A stretch of 64,000 nt of DNA from a virus (taxonomy: Duplodnaviria; Caudoviricetes). Shown piece after piece: positions 8,138 through 20,182 of this stretch. The notes beneath the pieces were generated by a model, which saw nothing but the letters and a program-made list of their open reading frames with translations, had not been told where the DNA came from and made no database searches. The position numbers and the translations under genes are program-made. The stretch's first letter is position 1, and each line of letters opens with the position of its first letter. The stretch spans positions 1-64,000 of IMG/VR virus record IMGVR_UViG_3300032243_001145, one strand, 5' to 3'.

Positions 8138-8782
8138 TCAATAGCCTATTTCAATAACTTTTCCGTTAAAAGATTTATCTGCATTTAATATTATATTAGC
8201 TATCTGCTCTTTTGTAGCAAGAGATGAAATGTCTTCTTTATAATTTGAATCATAAAAAGCCCTAGTATCATATATAAGCCCTGGAGAAATAGAAAATGCT
8301 GACTGATCTTTATTTAAACTAACTGATAAAGACATTATAAATGCTTGAACTCCCGCTTTTACAGCAGAATAATTTGCATCACGAATTGGTTTATTTGCTG
8401 CCATAGAAGATATAGAAATTATCTGTCCTTCATTTGATAAAGATTTTAATAAATTAATTACAAGCCAATTATAATTAAATAAATAAGCATTATAAAAATT
8501 TCTAACAATATTTTCAGGTATATTTTTAAAATCAGGATAGTTTCCAAGAGTGTTTCCTGGCAATAATATTATTTTTGAATAATAATTTGTTTTTAATTGA
8601 TCAATAAATATTTTAATGCTTTCAAAATTTTCTAAATCAAGGTATATCCAATTATAAGATCCGTATGTTTTATTCTTATTTCTATATGTCATGGTGTCGA
8701 TTTGATATCCATTATTTTCTAAAGTTGAAACTATAATGTTAGACAATCCACTTGATCCACCAATAATTAATACATTTTTCAT
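8138..8782 (-). CDS. short-chain dehydrogenase/reductase (SDR)
   Basis: GGSSGLS dinucleotide fold, SISS, catalytic YSAVK. Confidence 0.85.
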   Translation of the reverse strand: MKNVLIIGGSSGLSNIIVSTLENNGYQIDTMTYRNKNKTYGSYNWIYLDLENFESIKIFIDQLKTNYYSKIILLPGNTLGNYPDFKNIPENIVRNFYNAYLFNYNWLVINLLKSLSNEGQIISISSMAANKPIRDANYSAVKAGVQAFIMSLSVSLNKDQSAFSISPGLIYDTRAFYDSNYKEDISSLATKEQIANIILNADKSFNGKVIEIGY

Positions 8783-8796
8783 AAAGCTCCTTAACT

Positions 8797-8830
8797 ATAA
8801 CTTTATTATATCATGATATAATAAAGTTAT
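8797..8830. promoter_or_regulatory. 34-bp perfect palindrome forming back-to-back extended -10 promoters
   Basis: ATAACTTTATTATATCA|TGATATAATAAAGTTAT between divergent genes. Confidence 0.8.
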
Positions 8831-9407
8831 GAATAAAATAAATTTAGACTCAAATATTTTTTATATAGAAAATTTTTTATCAAAAGAATCTCATTTACAG
8901 CTTTTAAATTTTTGTAATGAAGGAAACTTTATATTTGAAGATAAATACGTTAAGCAAAGAGGCATTAAATATATTGATAGACAAAATAATCAAGACTATA
9001 TAAATGCATATAAAGAGTTTGTATCTAGTATAGAAAAAATGTTTAATAATGATAAACATTCATTAGAATATCTATCTCATGTTCAAACATACAAAATGTA
9101 TAATAATGAACTAAATTATAATAAAAGATGGGCAATGGGCCCACATTTTGATGACGAAAGACCAGACATTTTTGATGGAGAACCAATAGTTTATTTTGGA
9201 TTAGTTTATTATATAAATGATAATTATGATGGCGGAGAAATAACTTATCCTAATCAAAATATAAAATTTAAACCAAAAGCAAATACATTAGTTGTGCACC
9301 CAGGATCAAATAATTACGTGCATCAAGTTGAACAAATATTTAATTGTGATAGGTTTCAAATATCAGCATTTATTAAAAATAATAAAATAAAATCTTTATT
9401 ATTTTAA
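8829..9407 (+). CDS. 2OG-Fe(II) oxygenase (prolyl-4-hydroxylase-like)
   Basis: HFD...YINDNYDGGE...H...R. Confidence 0.9.
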   Translation: MNKINLDSNIFYIENFLSKESHLQLLNFCNEGNFIFEDKYVKQRGIKYIDRQNNQDYINAYKEFVSSIEKMFNNDKHSLEYLSHVQTYKMYNNELNYNKRWAMGPHFDDERPDIFDGEPIVYFGLVYYINDNYDGGEITYPNQNIKFKPKANTLVVHPGSNNYVHQVEQIFNCDRFQISAFIKNNKIKSLLF

Positions 9408-9973
9408 GCAACACCTTGTTTTTTTAATAAAACTAAATTATATATTGCAAGAGCTTCCTCAATGTCTGGGTGATTTTTAACGGACCCCTTCACAGAATCA
9501 TAACTATCATCAATTATGCTGGTTGGTTCAAATATTTCAGTTGCTTCTGGAAAAACTATTTCAAAATCTTCTTCGAGAGGATTTAAATAAATTTTGTGAC
9601 AAAGCATTGATATTATTCTTTGTGGATGTAAAACCAAATCTTCAAAGTCAATTACAATAACATTTTTATGAGAATTAATTTTATCATAAAATAAAATATA
9701 GTCTTTAATACTTTTTGCTATTTTTTGATTTAAAATTTGATCTGGTTCACCAATCCATTGATCTTTGTCATAAATTCCATTTTTTGAATCAAATATCATT
9801 TTTGATGAAAGAGCATCAACTGGATGTCTTGCTATTGTTATCCATTTAAATCTTTCATCTAATACTTCATTTAAATCATGTGACTCAGCGACCTTATGCA
9901 GCTTAACTTTATTTGCTAAATTTTCTATTAAAAAATGATTTCCGTGTCTTGGGAATGTAACTATTTTATTCAT
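9404..9973 (-). CDS. sulfotransferase-family protein
   Basis: PRHGNHFL (5'-PSB loop), ARHPVDALSS (3'-PB), FEDLVLHP. Confidence 0.75.
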   Translation of the reverse strand: MNKIVTFPRHGNHFLIENLANKVKLHKVAESHDLNEVLDERFKWITIARHPVDALSSKMIFDSKNGIYDKDQWIGEPDQILNQKIAKSIKDYILFYDKINSHKNVIVIDFEDLVLHPQRIISMLCHKIYLNPLEEDFEIVFPEATEIFEPTSIIDDSYDSVKGSVKNHPDIEEALAIYNLVLLKKQGVA

Positions 9974-10040
9974 TATTGCCTCCTTAATTTCAAGGATACA
10001 ATTTATACATTAAAAAGTCAATAATGATACAATATTCTAT

Positions 10041-10724
10041 ATGGATTCAGTTTATTTTTTACATATAAATAAAACAGCTGGCAGGTTTTTCTATGACTAT
10101 GTCATTAAGCCTTCTAGGTTTGCAATTGACTTTGATTATAAATTTATAATACCAAACAAAAGTAACTCTTGGACACATTGGGGATGGACGGATTTAATTC
10201 AAGACTCAACATATGTTATGTCATCGTTAAGAGATCCTGTTGAAGTTGCAATTAGCTATTATTTACATAGTTTTACAGAAGATCATGATGAGGAGCTAGA
10301 TAGTCTAAGGACTGTTTTGAAATCAAAACATACATTTTTTTATGCAATGGAACGAATAACTAACATACAATCAAAAAATTTTATGACTTGGAAAGATGAT
10401 AAAGTTTCTGTCGGCACTTCAATGCCAATAAATAAAAATTTAGTATTTGAAAGACTTGACAGAGTAAATTTATTATTAAATTCAAAAGATATAAATATAA
10501 AAACTGCAAAAAACATACAAGAAAAAATATTTACAGATTTAAATATTAAATCTGATGCAACAGTTCCAGAAAAAGATACTAATTCATTTAGAACAAAAGG
10601 TTTTAATGAGTTTTACAATTCATTTACTCAAGGACAGCTTGACAGAATAGCTGATTTAAATTCTATTGATATGGAGCTTTATGAAAAAGCAAAAACATTA
10701 TTTTGGAAACCAAAACAAAATTAA
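10041..10724 (+). CDS. sulfotransferase (Sulfotransfer_2-like)
   Basis: FLHINKTAG, LRDPVEVAISYY, NSIDMELYE. Confidence 0.8.
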   Translation: MDSVYFLHINKTAGRFFYDYVIKPSRFAIDFDYKFIIPNKSNSWTHWGWTDLIQDSTYVMSSLRDPVEVAISYYLHSFTEDHDEELDSLRTVLKSKHTFFYAMERITNIQSKNFMTWKDDKVSVGTSMPINKNLVFERLDRVNLLLNSKDINIKTAKNIQEKIFTDLNIKSDATVPEKDTNSFRTKGFNEFYNSFTQGQLDRIADLNSIDMELYEKAKTLFWKPKQN

Positions 10725-10939
10725 TTTTTTTCTTTAATTCTTTTCCACATTCCATATTGATCAGGATCATTTAAACCAATATACTCTTGTCCAGTTTCTA
10801 AATCTATTAGTAACCATTTGCCTGGAGCTTTTGTATGTATGACTAGATCTACTGCAACATCTAACTGTTTTACTTCTGACCCTTGATACATTCTAGGAAG
10901 AAATGAATAAACATTATTTAATAATTTTCTTGTTTTCAT
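10721..10939 (-). CDS. hypothetical protein
   Basis: 72 aa, TKAPGKWLLIDLETGQEY. Confidence 0.75.
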   Translation of the reverse strand: MKTRKLLNNVYSFLPRMYQGSEVKQLDVAVDLVIHTKAPGKWLLIDLETGQEYIGLNDPDQYGMWKRIKEKN

Positions 10940-11025
10940 AATACAGGTGAATCTAAAACTGCATCTATTGCGTCATCAATATTACTTTGATGTTCTTTTG
11001 AGCAATTTCCGCAGTTTAAACACAT
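10936..11025 (-). CDS. 29-aa MCLNCGNC microprotein
   Basis: ATGA-coupled to the downstream gene; not in the ORF track. Confidence 0.6.
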   Translation of the reverse strand: MCLNCGNCSKEHQSNIDDAIDAVLDSPVL

Positions 11026-11026
11026 T

Positions 11027-11230
11027 TTATTTTCTTCCCCATTTAACTTTATTCCAACCACGCTCATGGAAATAATAAAGGATTGTCTTTGTTAGTACTT
11101 CAAACCCTGCAATTGATGCAGCAGTTATTGCTTTATGTGTTATAAAATATGACAAAACAAAAGTGTCTGCCGTTCCAATGATACGCCAAGTGATTGCTTT
11201 TAGTGCTGATCTTTGTTTAGTTACATTCAT
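11027..11230 (-). CDS. DUF2061 small membrane protein
   Basis: RSALKAITWR...YYFHERGW. Confidence 0.85.
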   Translation of the reverse strand: MNVTKQRSALKAITWRIIGTADTFVLSYFITHKAITAASIAGFEVLTKTILYYFHERGWNKVKWGRK

Positions 11231-11298
11231 CTTTATCCTTAAAATCAAACATTAATGCTACAAACCTATCTTCTGCATCTGCAATACCCTGAGAACTT

Positions 11299-12060
11299 TT
11301 ATATACCCAATTCTTTACGCTTTTCAGTAGCTGAAATAGCATGAATGGTTGCCCCCAAATCTACTTGTTCAATTTTATATCCTACGTCACGACCATATAC
11401 AATGTTGGTAATATTAGGCAATCTTAATACCAATGCTCCATCCATAAATTCATCTTTAGCAATATATTCTTTTACCTGATCAAAGGTCAACGGATCTTTT
11501 TCGCTAGTCTTATATGTATTTCTTACGCCAAGTAAAACTTGCTTTGTTCTTTTTCCCGCCTCTTCATATAGTGCGTGATGTCCTTCATGCCAAGGTTGGT
11601 ATCTACCAAGCATTAATGTTGTTGGAGCCGACCAATCATGAAGTTTGAAGTGCTGAATAATTACAGTAGCTTTTTGATCTTGATCTAGTTTATGATCTTC
11701 AAAAGTTGCATCATACTGTGTTGGGCGTTCAAACATTTTATTTGTATCTTCAAAACGACCCTCTTCAATTGTATCCATAAATATAAAAATATCTGGCTTA
11801 CCAAATGCTGAACGTGTAGCTTCTGTTGGGCAAACAAAATCTACAATAACTGGTGCCACACCTTGCTTAGAAATAAGACGTGCCATCTCGCCCATACGAC
11901 GTGCCTGTTCTAGTCTATCTTCTGGTGTGAATCCAAGATCAGAGTTTACTGTTGCACGTACCTCATCAGCATTTAAATGAATTGCATTAATTCTTTCTTT
12001 TAAAGCTTTTGCTAACTGAGTTTTGCCTGAACCTGGGAGTCCAATTATTTGAATAATCAT
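11299..12060 (-). CDS. cysC: adenylyl-sulfate (APS) kinase fused to a HxGH nucleotidyltransferase domain
   Basis: GLPGSGKT, LNADEVR, DLGFTPEDRLEQARR; C-domain GRYQPWHEGH...YGRD...ISATEKR. Confidence 0.85.
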   Translation of the reverse strand: MIIQIIGLPGSGKTQLAKALKERINAIHLNADEVRATVNSDLGFTPEDRLEQARRMGEMARLISKQGVAPVIVDFVCPTEATRSAFGKPDIFIFMDTIEEGRFEDTNKMFERPTQYDATFEDHKLDQDQKATVIIQHFKLHDWSAPTTLMLGRYQPWHEGHHALYEEAGKRTKQVLLGVRNTYKTSEKDPLTFDQVKEYIAKDEFMDGALVLRLPNITNIVYGRDVGYKIEQVDLGATIHAISATEKRKELGI

Positions 12061-12803
12061 TTAGAAATCTCTCTTACTAGTTGATGAATAGCGTTATCGC
12101 TATCATCGTTATATGTTGATGAAAACATAAGTTCAAATTCTTTAAACTTATTTAATTCTTTTAGCACTGTTTCCTGTGTGCCATAAATACAATTATTAAT
12201 TTGTCTTTCATTTTTTAGATCATTAAATATTTTTTCGGCTTCTGCGTAGCTGTCTTTAATAATTAAAAATATTTTTAATATTTTTTTACTATTAATTATA
12301 TCAAATCTATTTGAATTATTCAAGTGATCTTCTAATAAATAAATAATACCATCTCCATAATTTAATGAATTTATTATTGTTTCGTCAGATCCTCCGCTAA
12401 AAAATATTTCAGGTAAATCTTTATTAATTTCTTTTAATTTAGCTACAAACTGTCCAGATTTTTGTTTTCTTTCTTGTATAGAAGTTATATTTTCAAATAA
12501 ATCTTGATCTTCATCGCTAGTCCCAGATACAATATTAATTAAAAGTTTATCTTTTACTATTTGATTAAATGCTTTTATCATCATTGATAAATAAGCTGGT
12601 GTCAATGCATATGGCCTTATTGCAACCATATATTTTGTTTTTTGTCCTTCAAACAAAGCATTTGCTGCTTTTATAAAATAATCTTCTTCGTCTGAATGAA
12701 ATGTTAGTAAAACTGATTCGTATCCAACATCATCTATAGATTTAATAAAAGAATGAAGTTCCATTGGAGTGAAATTATACTTCAACATCCAATGAAACTT
12801 CAT
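12057..12803 (-). CDS. luciferase-like flavin monooxygenase (SsuD-like), paralog 2
   Basis: GYESVLL...KYMVAIRPYALTP...LLINIVSG. Confidence 0.8.
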   Translation of the reverse strand: MKFHWMLKYNFTPMELHSFIKSIDDVGYESVLLTFHSDEEDYFIKAANALFEGQKTKYMVAIRPYALTPAYLSMMIKAFNQIVKDKLLINIVSGTSDEDQDLFENITSIQERKQKSGQFVAKLKEINKDLPEIFFSGGSDETIINSLNYGDGIIYLLEDHLNNSNRFDIINSKKILKIFLIIKDSYAEAEKIFNDLKNERQINNCIYGTQETVLKELNKFKEFELMFSSTYNDDSDNAIHQLVREISK

Positions 12804-12808
12804 TTAGA

Positions 12809-13015
12809 CTAAACCTTTTTTCTGCCTGTTTTTTTGGTAGGCTTAGGTATTAAGCTTGTCTCTCTTCTAATTCCGTGCTTGTTAGTATCTATTTTTACAC
12901 CCTGTCTTGGATACTTCTTGGGCGTTTCTCTACTTGTAACGGCTCCTGCTGCTGCGCCTGCATTTGGTGCTGGCGTCGTGCTTGTTCCGTCTTCTTTTTT
13001 AATACTATTGTTCAT
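12809..13015 (-). CDS. basic low-complexity small protein
   Basis: 68 aa, Lys/Arg-rich C-terminus. Confidence 0.65.
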   Translation of the reverse strand: MNNSIKKEDGTSTTPAPNAGAAAGAVTSRETPKKYPRQGVKIDTNKHGIRRETSLIPKPTKKTGRKKV

Positions 13016-13163
13016 TTATAAACTGTCTTGTCTCTTCTGGTGTTGATACCATTCCTAGTGTTGTACCAGATTCACCATCTCTTGAAACATCTTCAATATT
13101 AACTGGTGTCATTCCTAACCCCATGCCAACTGAATTAATACCGCATCCGCAATCCATACACAT
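13005..13163 (-). CDS. 52-aa MCMDCGCG microprotein
   Basis: TAATG-coupled; N-terminal CxxCGC. Confidence 0.7.
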   Translation of the reverse strand: MCMDCGCGINSVGMGLGMTPVNIEDVSRDGESGTTLGMVSTPEETRQFINEQ

Positions 13164-13339
13164 TAGCTACAGTTCTCGCAATCTTTAACTGCACAATCGG
13201 CTTCGCCTCTTGTGTCTCTTGTGCACTCCACATTAGCCTTTACTGGCGCTGCAGGTGCTACTACAGGCTTAACAGCCTCAGCAATTGCTGCTTCCATTGA
13301 TGGAGCAGTTACTTCTTCTGTTTTTAAAATGTCTTCCAT
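13163..13339 (-). CDS. 58-aa protein with C-terminal 4-Cys cluster
   Basis: ...ECTRDTRGEADCAVKDCENCS*. Confidence 0.7.
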   Translation of the reverse strand: MEDILKTEEVTAPSMEAAIAEAVKPVVAPAAPVKANVECTRDTRGEADCAVKDCENCS

Positions 13340-13341
13340 GA

Positions 13342-13548
13342 TTAGCTGTACATTCCTTCACTGACTCCTGGTGCATCTGTACCAGTATCTGAAGAACCTT
13401 CTCCATTTAATCCTGCATTACCCTGTGAAGACATGTCTTTTGCTGGAAACGCTCCTGCTAATGCTTCTGTGTAGCTTTCTGTTGCCCATGGTGATGGCTC
13501 GTAGCCTTTTGTCTCACCAAATCCTGTTAAGTTAATTCCATCTGTCAT
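13342..13548 (-). CDS. acidic Gly/Ser-rich small protein
   Basis: AGGAG RBS, TGCTAATAAT-like -10 and leader hairpin upstream. Confidence 0.75.
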   Translation of the reverse strand: MTDGINLTGFGETKGYEPSPWATESYTEALAGAFPAKDMSSQGNAGLNGEGSSDTGTDAPGVSEGMYS

Positions 13549-13623
13549 TTTATTGCTCCTATAGGTTATTTATTTAAGCGGGACTAGTATTCCGCTTATA
13601 GGTCTATTATAGCATCTAGTTGA

Positions 13624-13743
13624 TTAAGATTTGTATTTATCATAATAACAATCAGAGCATACCCGTATAAGTCGGCTTTCAGTGCTTGTTATTTTAGTTG
13701 CTGGTTTTTGACAATTTTTTACTTCACAAAATTCACTACTCAT
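13624..13743 (-). CDS. 39-aa Zn-finger-like microprotein
   Basis: CxxxxC...CSDC. Confidence 0.6.
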   Translation of the reverse strand: MSSEFCEVKNCQKPATKITSTESRLIRVCSDCYYDKYKS

Positions 13744-13746
13744 ATA

Positions 13747-13890
13747 TTATTTTGAGCCTTTTGCAGTTTGGCCCCTATAGCCCGTCTTTTTTTTATTCAT
13801 CGATCCAGGTTTCTTGTATCCAGAGCCGTTTGGAGTTGCTGCAATTCTTTGCTCTAAAGCCTTTTTAATCTTATCATGGTGCTTTCCCAT
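13747..13890 (-). CDS. 47-aa basic microprotein (MGKHHDKIKK...)
   Basis: TAATG-coupled. Confidence 0.65.
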   Translation of the reverse strand: MGKHHDKIKKALEQRIAATPNGSGYKKPGSMNKKKTGYRGQTAKGSK

Positions 13891-14108
13891 TATTTAACCT
13901 TATTTCCAAACTTTGCCCATACTCTTTCGTGTAAAAAGTATCCTATCATTTCGCATAAAGTATAAATTATTGCAAATGATCCAGCATATTCCCAATGTGC
14001 TTCTCCAGTAATGGCTTTTTCAAAAAAATATACCATTGTTCCAACAAAGCTAATATGTACTGCTGGCCATGTTAATGATTTATATAAACTTTTTCTATTT
14101 GATTCCAT
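13890..14108 (-). CDS. DUF2061-like membrane protein
   Basis: KSLYKSLTW...YFLHERVW. Confidence 0.75.
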   Translation of the reverse strand: MESNRKSLYKSLTWPAVHISFVGTMVYFFEKAITGEAHWEYAGSFAIIYTLCEMIGYFLHERVWAKFGNKVK

Positions 14109-14892
14109 TTTGTTCCCCCATTATTTCTTTAATTAAATAGTGTATAGATGATACGTTATTATCTTCTGGGTGAGGGCTGATTAATAAATCAGTAGCACCT
14201 AAATCCTTTAGATTTTTTATTTGATCCTTTACACTATTTTTATTACCATATATTGTCCATCTGTCGGACCCTAAACTTTTAGATAACATGTTTTTTATAT
14301 CTGATTCTGAATCATTTATTATTATACTAAATGATAACATTTGTTTGGTATTTTTTATAAAATTAGGATCTTCATACGACTGCTTATGCATGTTTAGCAT
14401 AGCAAGGTGTGTGGCATTATATTTCTCAGCCATAAGTCTTGTTTCATTGGAATGACCACCCATAACTATTTCTGAAACTGTATCACCCGCAAGAGAATTG
14501 AACTTTAAAATCCAATTATCCGTGTAACTTAATCTTTTTTCTGGGGTATCTAGATCTTTTCCAAACCAGATTATGTCTTGTACCGACGTCTCTTCTTCAT
14601 GCAAGTCGCCAGATACAATATTAAGCATAAGTCTATTTGGGCATATGTTATAAAAAGCCTTAGATATCATTGCACAATATTCTGGGCTTATTGCATATGT
14701 CCTGATTGCTGGCATGTATTTAAATTTATGATTTGTATCTAGAACTCTGGCAGCCTTAATCCAATTATCTTCTATTTTTGAATGATATACAAGCAATATT
14801 GATTCATATCCAAATTTATCTGCTATTTCTGAAATATACTTAAGGCGATCAAGACTTGTGTCTCCGCCTCTTTCCATCCAATGAAACTTCAT
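14095..14892 (-). CDS. luciferase-like flavin monooxygenase (SsuD-like), paralog 1
   Basis: MKFHWM, GYESILL, KYMPAIRTYAISP, NRLMLNIVSGD. Confidence 0.8.
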   Translation of the reverse strand: MKFHWMERGGDTSLDRLKYISEIADKFGYESILLVYHSKIEDNWIKAARVLDTNHKFKYMPAIRTYAISPEYCAMISKAFYNICPNRLMLNIVSGDLHEEETSVQDIIWFGKDLDTPEKRLSYTDNWILKFNSLAGDTVSEIVMGGHSNETRLMAEKYNATHLAMLNMHKQSYEDPNFIKNTKQMLSFSIIINDSESDIKNMLSKSLGSDRWTIYGNKNSVKDQIKNLKDLGATDLLISPHPEDNNVSSIHYLIKEIMGEQNGIK

Positions 14893-14958: not shown

Positions 14959-15975
14959 TTACTTCTTAAGTGCAACCTTAGCTTTTGGATTCTTTGCGTT
15001 CCACTTCTTTGCAAGAGCGTTATACTCTGCGATGTAAGTGGCCTTATCAAGATCTGCTGCTGCTGTTGCGGTTATTGTTGCTGCTTTTGCATCGGCAAGA
15101 GCTTTATCTGCTGCAACCTTGTCTGCTGCACGTCCAGCTTTTTCTGCTGCAAGTGCTGCATTAGCAACTGCTAGTTCTGAATTCTTTGCTGCAAGTTCGC
15201 CTGCAAGATCACGAACTGCTACTGTTGCAACTACAGAACCTACTGGTGCTGCAAGTCCTGTTACGGCTGTTGCTACTGTTGCGTATGCTGTAACTACAAC
15301 TGAACCTGAAGCAGGAAGTGTAACTGTCTGCTCCTTAGTTCCAAGTGTTGCTACTGCTGTATCTGTTGTAAGCGCTGTTGCAGTTGCTGCACCATTTGAG
15401 CTTACTAAAGTATTAATTGTTGCTCCACCCTTTAAGTTTCCAAATACATCGTATCCTGATACCTTAAGTGTTGCAATTGTTCCTGCTGCTCCAGATGCTG
15501 GTGCGGTTAGGGTAATTGAGTTCAAAGCACCTGCGGTACCTTGTACGTAGTATGTAGTTGTGTTTCCACCAACAGTAACTAATACTGTTCCTACTGTAGT
15601 AGTTTTAGTATATACATAAAACTCTGCTGTTGTTCCTGTTCCAACATTAATTGTTAGAGCAGATGATCCGCTTGAAGCGGTTACTGGTGCACTTGCTGTT
15701 GCAAGCGCTGGAACAATAGTTGCATTTGTTGCAACTGCTGATACTGCTGTTCCTGTATCTACAGAAGTAATAGCAATCTTTAATGCATCTGCTGCATCTA
15801 TGCTATTGTCTGCTGGTACTGGAAGTGCTACAGGAGCTGTTGCTACTGTGCCACCCGTTGCTGCAGAACCCGCAACTGTTAGAGTTGTGGTTGCCGCATT
15901 TGCTGCTGGCGATACTAGCATTGTGCTAGTCAGGGCTGCAGCGATGATTAGCGATACTTTCTTAAATGAGTTCAT
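14959..15975 (-). CDS. exported Ala/Thr-rich surface (S-layer/Ig-like) protein
   Basis: Signal peptide ending ANA, beta-rich core with DVFGN, Ala/Lys helical tail. Confidence 0.75.
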   Translation of the reverse strand: MNSFKKVSLIIAAALTSTMLVSPAANAATTTLTVAGSAATGGTVATAPVALPVPADNSIDAADALKIAITSVDTGTAVSAVATNATIVPALATASAPVTASSGSSALTINVGTGTTAEFYVYTKTTTVGTVLVTVGGNTTTYYVQGTAGALNSITLTAPASGAAGTIATLKVSGYDVFGNLKGGATINTLVSSNGAATATALTTDTAVATLGTKEQTVTLPASGSVVVTAYATVATAVTGLAAPVGSVVATVAVRDLAGELAAKNSELAVANAALAAEKAGRAADKVAADKALADAKAATITATAAADLDKATYIAEYNALAKKWNAKNPKAKVALKK

Positions 15976-16022
15976 TTAATTTATTCTCCTTATTTCTTCT
16001 ATTTCTTATATGAAACAGAAAG

Positions 16023-16223
16023 TTAGTGTAATTCATGTATCTTTACATGAAACGAACAGGGATCTCCGCCTTCTTCCCATTCTTGCATTTCTTCATCTGA
16101 CATTGGTGGACCATCATGTGTATCACAAAATACATCTGATACCCACCCACGATCATAACCATTTTTAAGCCATATTTCAAACTCTAAATGATTATTATCT
16201 TTTGAATCAAATTCTATATCCAT
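16023..16223 (-). CDS. hypothetical protein
   Basis: CDTHDG...GGDPC. Confidence 0.75.
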   Translation of the reverse strand: MDIEFDSKDNNHLEFEIWLKNGYDRGWVSDVFCDTHDGPPMSDEEMQEWEEGGDPCSFHVKIHELH

Positions 16224-16516
16224 TCGGACATCTCTTCTAGAATTAAGTGCTTAGGCTTTGCCCCAATAATAGTTTTAACTGGTTTGCCTGACTTAAATAG
16301 TACCATATAAGGTATAGAGGTTACAGAGTATTCTGCTGGTTTAATGGGGTTGTCATCAATATTAATTTTACCAACCCACAGCCCACGTTCATTTGATATC
16401 TCATCTAATATTGGAGATACTCTTTTGCATGGTCCGCACCAGGGTGCCCAAAAGTCGATAAGAACTAAATCATGAGAATCTAGGACTCTATCAAAACTTT
16501 CATCTGTAACTATCAA
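16214..16516 (-). CDS. trxA: thioredoxin
   Basis: DFWAPWCGPCK, SIP. Confidence 0.95.
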   Translation of the reverse strand: MIVTDESFDRVLDSHDLVLIDFWAPWCGPCKRVSPILDEISNERGLWVGKINIDDNPIKPAEYSVTSIPYMVLFKSGKPVKTIIGAKPKHLILEEMSEWI

Positions 16517-16517
16517 C

Positions 16518-16727
16518 TTACTCTCCTTTTAATTCATCCGCAGCTTTATTAAATTTATTCATAAATGTTTGGATCACCCAAACTGCGGTTTCCCCTGCAT
16601 TGACAGACATTGCTTTTGAAGCTTCTTCAGTTCTGTCCTCCATAGCAAGGGCGTTGTACCATTTCTGGTACAACTCCTCACCAATCTCTTTAATAATTTC
16701 TTCAAGTACAGTTAACTTGTTATTCAT
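16518..16727 (-). CDS. hypothetical protein
   Basis: 69 aa in operon. Confidence 0.75.
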   Translation of the reverse strand: MNNKLTVLEEIIKEIGEELYQKWYNALAMEDRTEEASKAMSVNAGETAVWVIQTFMNKFNKAADELKGE

Positions 16728-17826
16728 TAAGTCTTGCTAACTGTGTTGCTTTAAGCGTAGCAAGTTTATCTGCTGCTATTTTAACTGCTGCATCATATTC
16801 TGCTTGTGCTTTTGCAATTTGTGCATTAACATCTGCTTGAAGCGCTGCTTTTGCAGCAGCCAATTCAGCAGGTGTAGGGCCAGCAGGTGTTACATTGTAT
16901 GCAAGCGCTGCATTGATGTTAATAAGCTTTGTAAATGTTCCCTGTCTTCCAATTGTAGAAGATGCTGTTGAACGCAAGGCTGTAAGCAATTGATCATATG
17001 TGTATGCAGGTTTTGCTGACTTTAGTTTAATCCACTGTGCTCCTGCAACTTGAATTGCAGCAGATGAACCTGAAATATTTTTTGAAATATTACCTGGACC
17101 AGCAATTGTAAAAAATCCTGGCGCAAAAAAATCAAGTTTTGCAGTGTCGTTGTTACTTGATGTTGAAATTTCATTTTGTTGATCTACGTAACCAACTGAA
17201 ATTGATTCGTCTAAACATGCTGGCCAATCAATACGTGCATAGTCACGTCCATTTCCTGAAGGAAAAAATGTTGGAATTCCAATAGCAATCAAATCTTTAA
17301 TAGACTGTTGTGTTGTTGGTGTTTTTGGACAATAATCAGTTCCTGCTACAAGATTATGCATTCCCTGAGACATGGTAACCGCTTGAATATTATACTTTAA
17401 AGCATTAGATTTGACCCAATTTAAAGCATTGTAAACAGATGCTTCTCCTGCATTTTGACGCAATCCAGTAGACGTATTTCCAATAATTTTAATAAATACA
17501 ACATTAACATTTGGATTGGTTGCTAAAAATACTGAGGTCATAAATGTTCCGTGATCAAAACCATTTTGTGTAATAAGGTTGCTTGGCATTGATGCCGCAC
17601 CCTTACCTTCCATAAATGACTGACCATTGGGGCATGTTGTCCATTCTAGAATACAAACTTCTTGAACAATTTTACCCTGAAATGCTGGAAGAGATGTGTC
17701 AATTGCTGTATCTAAAATAGCAATTGCTGGTGTAGAATCTGTACGGTTTTTTAATCCCGCTGCATGAGCGGTTGTAGGTACTGCTAGTGTGATTGCGATT
17801 AACGCAGCTATTAGTTTTTTATTCAT
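16720..17826 (-). CDS. secreted S8 (subtilisin-like) serine protease
   Basis: Signal peptide; AILDTAID, HGT, SGN, SGSSAA triad motifs. Confidence 0.85.
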   Translation of the reverse strand: MNKKLIAALIAITLAVPTTAHAAGLKNRTDSTPAIAILDTAIDTSLPAFQGKIVQEVCILEWTTCPNGQSFMEGKGAASMPSNLITQNGFDHGTFMTSVFLATNPNVNVVFIKIIGNTSTGLRQNAGEASVYNALNWVKSNALKYNIQAVTMSQGMHNLVAGTDYCPKTPTTQQSIKDLIAIGIPTFFPSGNGRDYARIDWPACLDESISVGYVDQQNEISTSSNNDTAKLDFFAPGFFTIAGPGNISKNISGSSAAIQVAGAQWIKLKSAKPAYTYDQLLTALRSTASSTIGRQGTFTKLININAALAYNVTPAGPTPAELAAAKAALQADVNAQIAKAQAEYDAAVKIAADKLATLKATQLARLNE

Positions 17827-19881: not shown

Positions 19882-20182
19882 GTTTTTCCTTTATTCTTTT
19901 CCAGACATCTTTTGTCTTGTGAGCATTTCTTACTTTATCATGAGATCCAGAGTTTAAGTAAACCCCTCCCCAAATTCCGTAATCGCTGTTGGCAACACCA
20001 GCATCGTAGCATAGCTTAATAACTGGGCATGAAAGGCATGCCTCATCAATGCTTTTTGCTATGTTTACATCAGCCTCATACTTATCAAAGAATAGATTTG
20101 TATCCATACCAAGGCACAAGGCTAGCTTGTACCAATCTAAATTATCTTCATCTACATTTAAACTATTTAAAATATTTGACAT
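19871..20182 (-). CDS. whiB: WhiB-family transcription factor
   Basis: WxxxALC...LFF...CLSCPVIKLC...GIWGG; likely start MSNIL. Confidence 0.9.
   Translation of the reverse strand: MSNILNSLNVDEDNLDWYKLALCLGMDTNLFFDKYEADVNIAKSIDEACLSCPVIKLCYDAGVANSDYGIWGGVYLNSGSHDKVRNAHKTKDVWKRIKEKHVY

Follow-up and report, generated by a model that had tools for sequence, protein, structure and literature searches.

A kinase-nucleotidyltransferase fusion associated with DUF2061 in a mosaic phage region, a candidate compact PAPS synthase

Gene content of the locus and sampling of its relatives

We analyzed a window of 64,000 nucleotides (nt) that comprises the first 64 kb of the IMG/VR virus record IMGVR_UViG_3300032243_001145 (Duplodnaviria; Caudoviricetes), a phage genome of 115,319 bp with direct terminal repeats. 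The subject of this work is the gene block at positions 8138-14892 of the window, which had been proposed, from the sequence alone, to constitute a self-contained island for sulfur activation and sulfation (hereinafter, the original prediction), and in particular a fusion protein of 253 amino acids (aa), denoted KinNT, in which a domain similar to adenosine 5'-phosphosulfate (APS) kinases is followed by a small nucleotidyltransferase (NT) domain. KinNT is a candidate source of 3'-phosphoadenosine 5'-phosphosulfate (PAPS). The block consists of the following genes:

8138-8782 (-): oxidoreductase of the short-chain dehydrogenase/reductase (SDR) family, 214 aa (adh_short, 52 bits; 25% GC)
8829-9407 (+): 2-oxoglutarate (2OG)-Fe(II) oxygenase, 192 aa (2OG-FeII_Oxy_3, PF13640, 29.5 bits)
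9404-9973 (-): ST1, sulfotransferase-like protein, 189 aa (Sulfotransfer_1, 22.6 bits against a cut-off of 22, a marginal match; Sulfotransfer_3, 21.7 bits)
10041-10724 (+): ST2, protein of the Sulfotransferase-2 type, 227 aa (by profile and motifs only; no Pfam match)
10721-10939 (-): p72, 72-aa protein (phrog_4098, 1.7e-7; in 9 loci)
11027-11248 (-): DUF2061a, small hydrophobic protein, 73 aa (PF09834, 74.3 bits; cut-off 23.1)
11299-12060 (-): KinNT, 253 aa (APS_kinase, PF01583, 58 bits over residues 2-85, and a CTP_transf_like/NMNAT-like C-terminal part)
12057-12803 (-): LLMa, luciferase-like monooxygenase (LLM) of the sulfonate-monooxygenase branch, 248 aa (25% GC)
12809-13548 (-): four small open reading frames (ORFs) of 68, 52, 58 and 68 aa (38-45% GC; no Pfam family)
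13890-14108 (-): DUF2061b, 72 aa (PF09834, 36.0 bits; cut-off 23.1)
14095-14892 (-): LLMb, luciferase-like paralog of LLMa, 265 aa

Searches with Pfam, NCBIfam and PDB profiles recovered all the gene families that the original prediction had named, each at the position where it had been placed. Both predicted sulfotransferases are supported, ST1 marginally in Pfam and ST2 by profile and motif evidence only. The LLM-DUF2061 unit indeed occurs twice, with the four small ORFs, which are mostly confined to the closest relatives (L028 and L080), between the two copies; the LLMa stop and the KinNT start share 4 nt, and DUF2061b and LLMb overlap by 14 nt. The proposal that one unit is a duplicate of the other fails: LLMa and LLMb are 33% identical and the two DUF2061 proteins 35%, that is, they are old paralogs. 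A recent tandem duplication was accordingly rejected, given that the paralogs are this divergent and are found apart in related phages. A scan of the block for promoters and terminators detected promoter-like sites at the level expected by chance (47 vs 44.6 expected).

The KinNT family is large, with 7,149 clusters at 90% identity (E <= 0.001), and at least 594 relatives on viral contigs were confirmed among the approximately 600 stretches examined. Genomic contexts were compared for the best 80 of these relatives, which are 84-93% identical to KinNT (81 loci counting this phage), and all ORFs of the compared loci were clustered to map the gene order. In DNA searches against deposited phages, nothing resembling the block was found, the sole match being a fragment of DnaE elsewhere. 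The window carries eight tRNA genes and a gene of the WhiB family (19961-20134, minus strand; 41.8 bits). WhiB is a mark of actinophages, and it is by this gene that we classify this lake phage as an actinophage.

The KinNT fusion protein and its partner DUF2061

The N-terminal domain of KinNT (residues 1 to ~140) is an APS-kinase-like P-loop kinase without the lid. The full-length protein matches phrog_10255 (1e-62), and its AlphaFold2 (AF2) model reaches a predicted local distance difference test (pLDDT) score of 95.9. The Walker A motif GLPGSGKT (residues 6-13) is nearly invariant in 52 homologs; the best sequence match is the APS kinase 2yvu (7.4e-10), and the best Foldseek matches are APS kinases as well (7.5e-9). 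In the VIA comparison, five APS kinases (Z 18.1-16.3), with CysC of M. tuberculosis at the top (Z 18.1, root mean square deviation (rmsd) 1.6 over 126 residues), are followed by gluconate kinase (14.8). The substrate-side motifs DxxR, LGF..DR..RR and FxxP are largely kept: at the positions of LDGDNxR, LGFS..DR..N.RR and FISP, KinNT has LNADEVR, DLGFTPEDRLEQARRM and FVCP, respectively, retaining the second Asp, the Arg, the Phe and one Arg, with the first Asp replaced by Asn. The PF01583 score of 58 bits compares with a cut-off of 21.1, and the score of 60 bits with TIGR00455 compares with a cut-off of 138.7. By sequence and fold, the kinase domain can be placed in the APS-kinase family, yet it is no typical member.

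Homologs of the lid-less kinase are often fused, on either side, to a DUF4118 membrane domain (P0144, P0273, P0213, P0232, P0275 and P0277); in P0144, the order of the domains is DUF4118, kinase, NT. Because of these DUF4118 fusions, we suggest, by analogy, that KinNT-type enzymes may work at the membrane.

The NT domain (residues ~145-253, ~110 aa) contains the motifs GRYQPWHEGH, YGRDVGY and ISATEKR. The loops that define the ATP sulfurylase Sat are QxRN (RNP), HxxH, GxxKxxD and GRD (PMC3779200), of which HxxH (as HEGH) and GRD (within YGRDVGY) are kept. Two further contexts connect this domain with sulfate activation. First, the protein P0175 contains the same small NT domain in the opposite fusion order, with a canonical CysC that has the LDGDN, FISP and KGLYKKAR motifs and the lid; the gene contexts of this and another permuted fusion (P0283) held nothing informative. 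Second, an operon in an alphaproteobacterial metagenome-assembled genome (MAG) (L099:856-5994) encodes CbiX, a CobA-type methylase, sulfite reductase (CysI), CysH, DUF2061, a lid-less kinase and, as a separate protein, a mini NT of 117 aa that matches the NT profile at 1e-54. Flanking genes for RNase E, PBP1A and PrfB led us to judge this contig cellular. Thus, the mini NT sits in the sulfurylase slot of a cysI-cysH operon. Searches of this genome found neither Sat nor CysD; as one genome of unestablished completeness, it lends support as an individual case only.

The association of DUF2061 with sulfate activation extends across bacteria. In 57 of the 80 bacterial DUF2061 loci, cysD-cysN lies within ~1 kb, with cysH in between; these loci come from Bacteroidota, Campylobacterota, Alphaproteobacteria and others. 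In Salegentibacter, the gene order is cysQ-DUF2061-cysC-cysD-cysN, with an adjoining sulfotransferase gene. In cells, DUF2061 is therefore a marker of sulfate activation. The family has an invariant YxHERxW motif, and the 15-residue hydropathy maxima are 1.4-1.7, values that are compatible with true membrane spans as well as with their absence. When fused forms of DUF2061 were sought, only tandem duplicates were found and one protein with a CysQ-like C-terminal stretch; in the latter (P0007), the region after two DUF2061 repeats resembles the N-terminus of CysQ/inositol phosphatases on visual inspection of the alignment. A literature search on DUF2061 returned nothing about its function.

Two of the loci labelled as bacterial contain genes similar to those of the phage. 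L093, labelled a Bacteroidia MAG, encodes a phage-like KinNT and both LLM proteins at 50-65% identity, and in L094, labelled a Bifidobacterium breve MAG, the DUF2061 gene is 70% identical to the phage copy. Both are probably phage contigs that were binned with bacteria.

A KinNT homolog is encoded in the cultured Xylella phage Sano (L001:4957-6726), after a gene for a NADAR-domain protein and a gene with a Sulfotransfer_4 score of 20.7 bits, below the cut-off.

Mosaic neighborhood, sulfotransferases and oxygenases

Among the related loci, KinNT is present in 79 of 80 at 84-93% identity and the DUF2061 gene in 74 of the 81 compared, where it directly follows KinNT in the gene-order map. This pair is the sole constant feature of the loci (74-79 of 80), and the other genes of the block vary: of the 80 other loci, one contains the SDR, seven contain ST2, 15 contain a member of the LLM family and none contains ST1, and the 2OG oxygenase family is represented in 38 of the 81. 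The single other locus with the SDR (L005) has it, there too, beside a 2OG oxygenase; relatives of ST2 are mostly located two to four genes after KinNT (in nearly all of the seven loci), and a second DUF2061 copy is common. The five genes at 8138-10939 are on alternating strands, with 4-nt convergent overlaps of the 2OG oxygenase with ST1 and of ST2 with p72, and nearly all of the rest of the window is on the minus strand. The GC content of the 8.1-10.9 kb segment and of LLMa is 22-28%, compared with 36.6% for KinNT and ~35% for the genome. In the relatives, the same neighborhood includes genes for a nuclease, CHAP, Hsp20, peroxiredoxin, IMPDH and tryptophan halogenase. Because of the variable gene order, the low GC content and the alternating strands, we describe the 7-kb block as a mosaic accessory region around a two-gene core that does not amount to a single inherited pathway. 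The self-contained, co-inherited island of the original prediction is thus not borne out: only KinNT and DUF2061 stay together, and three of the five sulfotransferase genes of the phage are far outside the block. Independent assortment across related phages, which had been named beforehand as a refuting test, is largely what the flanking genes display, and not the core.

A halogenase gene (352 bits; L051:9024-10574) immediately follows KinNT-DUF2061 in 12 related loci. In the phage itself, a tryptophan-halogenase gene (330 bits; genome positions 102541-104046, L175:1544-3046) is located near two sulfotransferase-like genes and a JmjC-like gene.

Three genes lie just upstream of the block, on the minus strand at 14959-17826. 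They encode a 338-aa protein rich in Ala and Thr, which begins with a hydrophobic segment resembling a signal peptide and has no Pfam match; a thioredoxin (87 bits); and an S8 subtilase (52 bits).

The Pfam sulfotransferase models are too insensitive for the relatives, and phage-derived profiles were used instead. Iterated hidden Markov model searches detected five sulfotransferase-like genes in the phage genome, namely ST1, ST2 and those at 83149-83856, 104723-105355 and 105576-106184. ST2 aligns with phage proteins that are positive for Sulfotransfer_2 and keeps both PAPS-binding motifs, HxxKTxG for the 5'-phosphosulfate and RDPxxxxxS for the 3'-phosphate; in the consensus of the phage family (26 sequences), the first of these reads H..KTGG, and the second has an invariant R64 and S72, with P66 in at least 90% of the sequences. 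Among solved structures, the profile of this family (A6) recovered PAPS-dependent sulfotransferases: it yielded 41 matches in PDB at E <= 0.1, all named as sulfotransferases except for one unnamed entry, with SULT1C3 as the best (6.7e-9).

Sulfotransferase-like genes were identified in 25 of 79 related loci and in five of seven near-complete relatives, in which their number ranges from none detected to three. Within three genes of KinNT lie 15 of the 27 sulfotransferase genes (24% baseline), and 15 of the 27 directly adjoin a gene for a 2OG or AspH oxygenase (7.7% baseline), although these counts include related, non-independent loci and overstate independence. Four different sulfotransferase clusters occur within one to three genes of KinNT, in differing gene contexts, and the adjacency to oxygenases involves five sulfotransferase clusters. 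The link between KinNT and sulfotransferases is therefore frequent but not obligatory. The suggestion that sulfation follows hydroxylation fits the adjacency of sulfotransferase and oxygenase genes, and within the block, the 2OG oxygenase at 8829-9407, which is convergent with ST1, is a probable hydroxylase partner.

Beyond the window, at 77582-87859 (L174:1585-11859), a minus-strand run of genes encodes a 444-aa fn3 protein, a Sulfotransfer_2-like protein, an AspH-type hydroxylase, five 2OG-FeII_Oxy_3 oxygenases and two DUF6065 proteins, and adjoins the gene for an 880-aa Mtd_N tail fibre protein. Its composition suggests a cassette in the tail fibre region that combines a substrate with the enzymes tailoring it.

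Both LLM proteins fall in the SsuD/MsuD/SfnG branch of monooxygenases, which provides all their best PDB matches. Each is below the Pfam cut-off when searched singly; their best NCBIfam and PDB matches are SsuD (for LLMa, 49.7 bits with TIGR03565, cut-off 518; for LLMb, SsuD as the best PDB match), and the family profile matches SsuD (7jv3) at 4.9e-18 over nearly the whole length, with deletions of ~23 and ~50 residues. Compared with SsuD, the phage proteins are short (248-265 vs ~380 aa), have an Ile or Glu at the position aligned with the cysteine of the SsuD 'RSCED' motif, and are encoded without an identified flavin reductase. All the matches listed for this family (145-464 aa searched) were short, most of them 249-273 aa, and none was on a contig longer than 136 kb, which is consistent with a phage origin; in ~10 of 16 loci, LLM genes are near KinNT, DUF2061 or sulfotransferase genes. 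SsuD chemistry yields sulfite. A reading in which these proteins supply sulfate was set aside on this ground, because large SsuD segments are absent, and because no bacterial DUF2061 locus contains such a gene except for the phage-like L093; nothing ties the LLM proteins to sulfate supply, and their place in the island of the original prediction is not supported.

Taking these observations together, we lean, on balance, towards a reading in which KinNT would make PAPS that is used by variable hydroxylase/sulfotransferase pairs. That KinNT makes PAPS is suggested because DUF2061 belongs to cys operons, because the NT domain is fused to CysC in P0175, and because of the operon slot in L099; the use of PAPS for sulfation is suggested because the phage encodes five sulfotransferase-like genes and no PAPS reductase.

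An unlikely, although serious, competing explanation is that the block as a whole encodes no pathway and would be a hot spot of unrelated single-gene cassettes, with KinNT-DUF2061 serving some sulfur-nucleotide function and the SDR, oxygenase, LLM and sulfotransferases acting on unrelated substrates, perhaps with PAPS from the host. The mosaic gene order, the uniqueness of ST1 and near-uniqueness of the SDR, the low GC content and alternating strands of the 8.1-10.9 kb segment, and the assorted genes that occupy this region in the relatives are what such a hot spot would look like. Chance assembly is harder to reconcile with the recurrence of four sulfotransferase clusters one to three genes from KinNT in differing contexts, with the sulfotransferase-oxygenase pairs in five clusters, and with the presence of sulfotransferase-like genes in five of the seven near-complete relatives.

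Rather improbable, in our assessment, is a function of KinNT in assimilatory sulfate reduction, whereby the phage would provide PAPS for the CysH and sulfite reductase of the host, yielding more cysteine, and the sulfotransferases would be unrelated passengers. CysC-family genes are known from abundant freshwater phages, including whiB-encoding actinophages in lakes, where they have been interpreted in precisely this way (10.1101/655167; PMC10914622), and phage cysC is reported to be highly transcribed in situ (PMC10914622). Bacterial DUF2061, and the split kinase and NT of L099, reside in assimilatory operons with cysH and cysI, and two complete relatives of the phage (G006 and G007) possess KinNT-DUF2061 without a detectable sulfotransferase. 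However, a search for PAPS reductase, Sat and CysQ in the phage genome found none of these, and cysH was not found in the 12 relatives searched, so that the predicted absence of PAPS reductase, originally noted for the window and taken to favor sulfation, extends to the whole genome and to these relatives. Furthermore, WhiB points to an actinobacterial host, the lake lineages named in 10.1101/655167 are said to lack the complete pathway, and the five sulfotransferase-like genes recur beside KinNT. Judging from these gene complements, the phage probably has a sulfation target of its own and does not serve sulfur assimilation by the host.

Proposed function and relation to known systems

Under the reading that we favor, namely PAPS synthesis by KinNT for phage sulfotransferases, the C-terminal mini nucleotidyltransferase would convert ATP and sulfate to APS and pyrophosphate, and the lid-less N-terminal domain can be predicted by homology to phosphorylate the 3'-OH of APS, yielding PAPS. 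DUF2061 would be a small membrane-associated partner with a possible role in anchoring the enzyme to the membrane or in linking it to the entry of sulfate. The PAPS would be used by the phage's own sulfotransferases; the acceptor hydroxyl would come from the Fe(II)/2OG or AspH-type hydroxylases with which they are often paired. Phage structural proteins or the host envelope would be the likely targets, because one hydroxylase/sulfotransferase pair adjoins the gene for an fn3 repeat protein and a tail fibre gene. The scheme assigns no step to the LLM proteins or to the SDR. The claim that the phage makes its own PAPS thus stands as the best reading of KinNT, with the ATP sulfurylase step being one that we infer.

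Several observations weigh against this reading. The ATP sulfurylase model PF01747 had no match (E <= 0.1) across the phage genome; the NT domain is without the QxRN loop of Sat (it reads GRYQ) and without the GxxKxxD loop, and profile A2 reaches Sat entries solely via their kinase-like domains. By sequence, therefore, the NT domain cannot be classed as Sat. Its nearest relatives by sequence are nicotinamide mononucleotide adenylyltransferases (NMNAT) of the archaeal/NadM type (1f9a, 2.4e-11), with ~75 residues matched; the score with NF002243 is 23.9 bits against a cut-off of 127. The model of the NT domain (pLDDT 89) had no Foldseek match at E <= 0.001, and the fold comparison does not discriminate among Sat, NMNAT and phosphopantetheine adenylyltransferase (PPAT), the Z scores being 8.4 for NMNAT and PPAT and 8.0 for 1v47, the ATP sulfurylase of T. 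thermophilus (rmsd 3.2 over 109 residues). The kinase is devoid of the ~19-residue mobile lid present in the three bacterial CysC proteins compared, a deletion common to the whole phage family, and has the residues NAD where APS kinases have DGD, so that its activity could differ. The gene directly downstream of the fusion in Xylella phage Sano has no Pfam match and thus no match to DUF2061, and the sulfotransferase-like neighbor there is only a weak one. The relatives G006 and G007, the uncertain completeness of the L099 genome, and the non-independence of the adjacency counts belong on the same side.

The similarity to NMNAT raises the alternative that KinNT is a NadR-like enzyme of NAD salvage or counter-defence, without a tie to sulfur, in which the NT domain would adenylylate nicotinamide mononucleotide and the kinase would phosphorylate a riboside or, in the product, the ribose of the adenosine; the shared GRFQPxHxGH and ISxTxxR motifs and the position of the Sano fusion directly after a NADAR-domain gene speak for it, but we consider it very unlikely given that the kinase is similar to APS kinases and not to ribosylnicotinamide kinase (RNK), that the NT domain is without the middle third of NMNAT (114 vs 168 aa, with ~75 residues matching), that DUF2061 is a cys-operon gene, that P0175 joins the NT domain to a canonical CysC, and that in a cysI-cysH operon the NT stands in the place of the sulfurylase.

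Compared with the NMNATs 1f9a, 1ej2 and 2qjt, which give the best profile matches (2.4e-11 to 3e-10) and the top fold Z score, the NT domain aligns over its first ~75 residues only, is ~55 residues shorter, has a conserved YGRDVGY loop, and is partnered in genomes with APS kinase, DUF2061, cysH and cysI, not with NAD genes.

PAPS synthases (human PAPSS1, 1x6v; the Sat/APS kinase of Aquifex, 2gks; CysN/CysC) likewise combine an APS-kinase fold and a HIGH-type nucleotidyltransferase in one polypeptide, and PAPSS has the same kinase-then-transferase order as KinNT, the kinase of which matches the PAPS-synthase/CysC structures best. In contrast to these enzymes of ~550-630 aa, KinNT consists of 253 aa, has no lid and has lost the first Asp of DGD; its transferase of ~110 aa is nearest to NMNAT by sequence, with no Sat Pfam match and neither QxRN nor GxxKxxD, and it is accompanied by DUF2061 in nearly all of the 80 related loci.

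Unlike the freshwater phage systems with cysC and cysH, this lineage is without cysH. Neither 10.1101/655167 nor PMC10914622 came up in the literature search on DUF2061, and PMC10914622, searched for the terms 'DUF2061' and 'sulfotransferase', contained neither. The CysC-family gene of phages is thus already known, and our analysis suggests as new its role, in this lineage, as a self-sufficient PAPS synthase that feeds phage sulfotransferases.

We know of only two types of enzymes, Sat and CysDN, for the ATP sulfurylase reaction. As a more far-reaching and tentative proposal, in which we place somewhat less confidence than in PAPS synthesis itself, the NT domain could represent a third, minimal class of ATP sulfurylases that evolved from an NMNAT-like ancestor. 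This domain, the lid-less kinase and DUF2061 would then make up a compact PAPS synthase of very abundant lake actinophages, which would be split in some bacteria without Sat and CysDN, and which in the phages would drive hydroxylation followed by sulfation of virion or host-surface molecules; the published phage 'cysC' would then be a sulfation gene.

If KinNT is a PAPS synthase that feeds phage sulfotransferases, the finding would point to sulfated phage or host-surface molecules, none of which we found described in the literature searched, and the NT domain of KinNT would be a very small candidate ATP sulfurylase. The reading of viral 'sulfur cycling' genes, with cysC counted as assimilation in lake viromes, would change as well.

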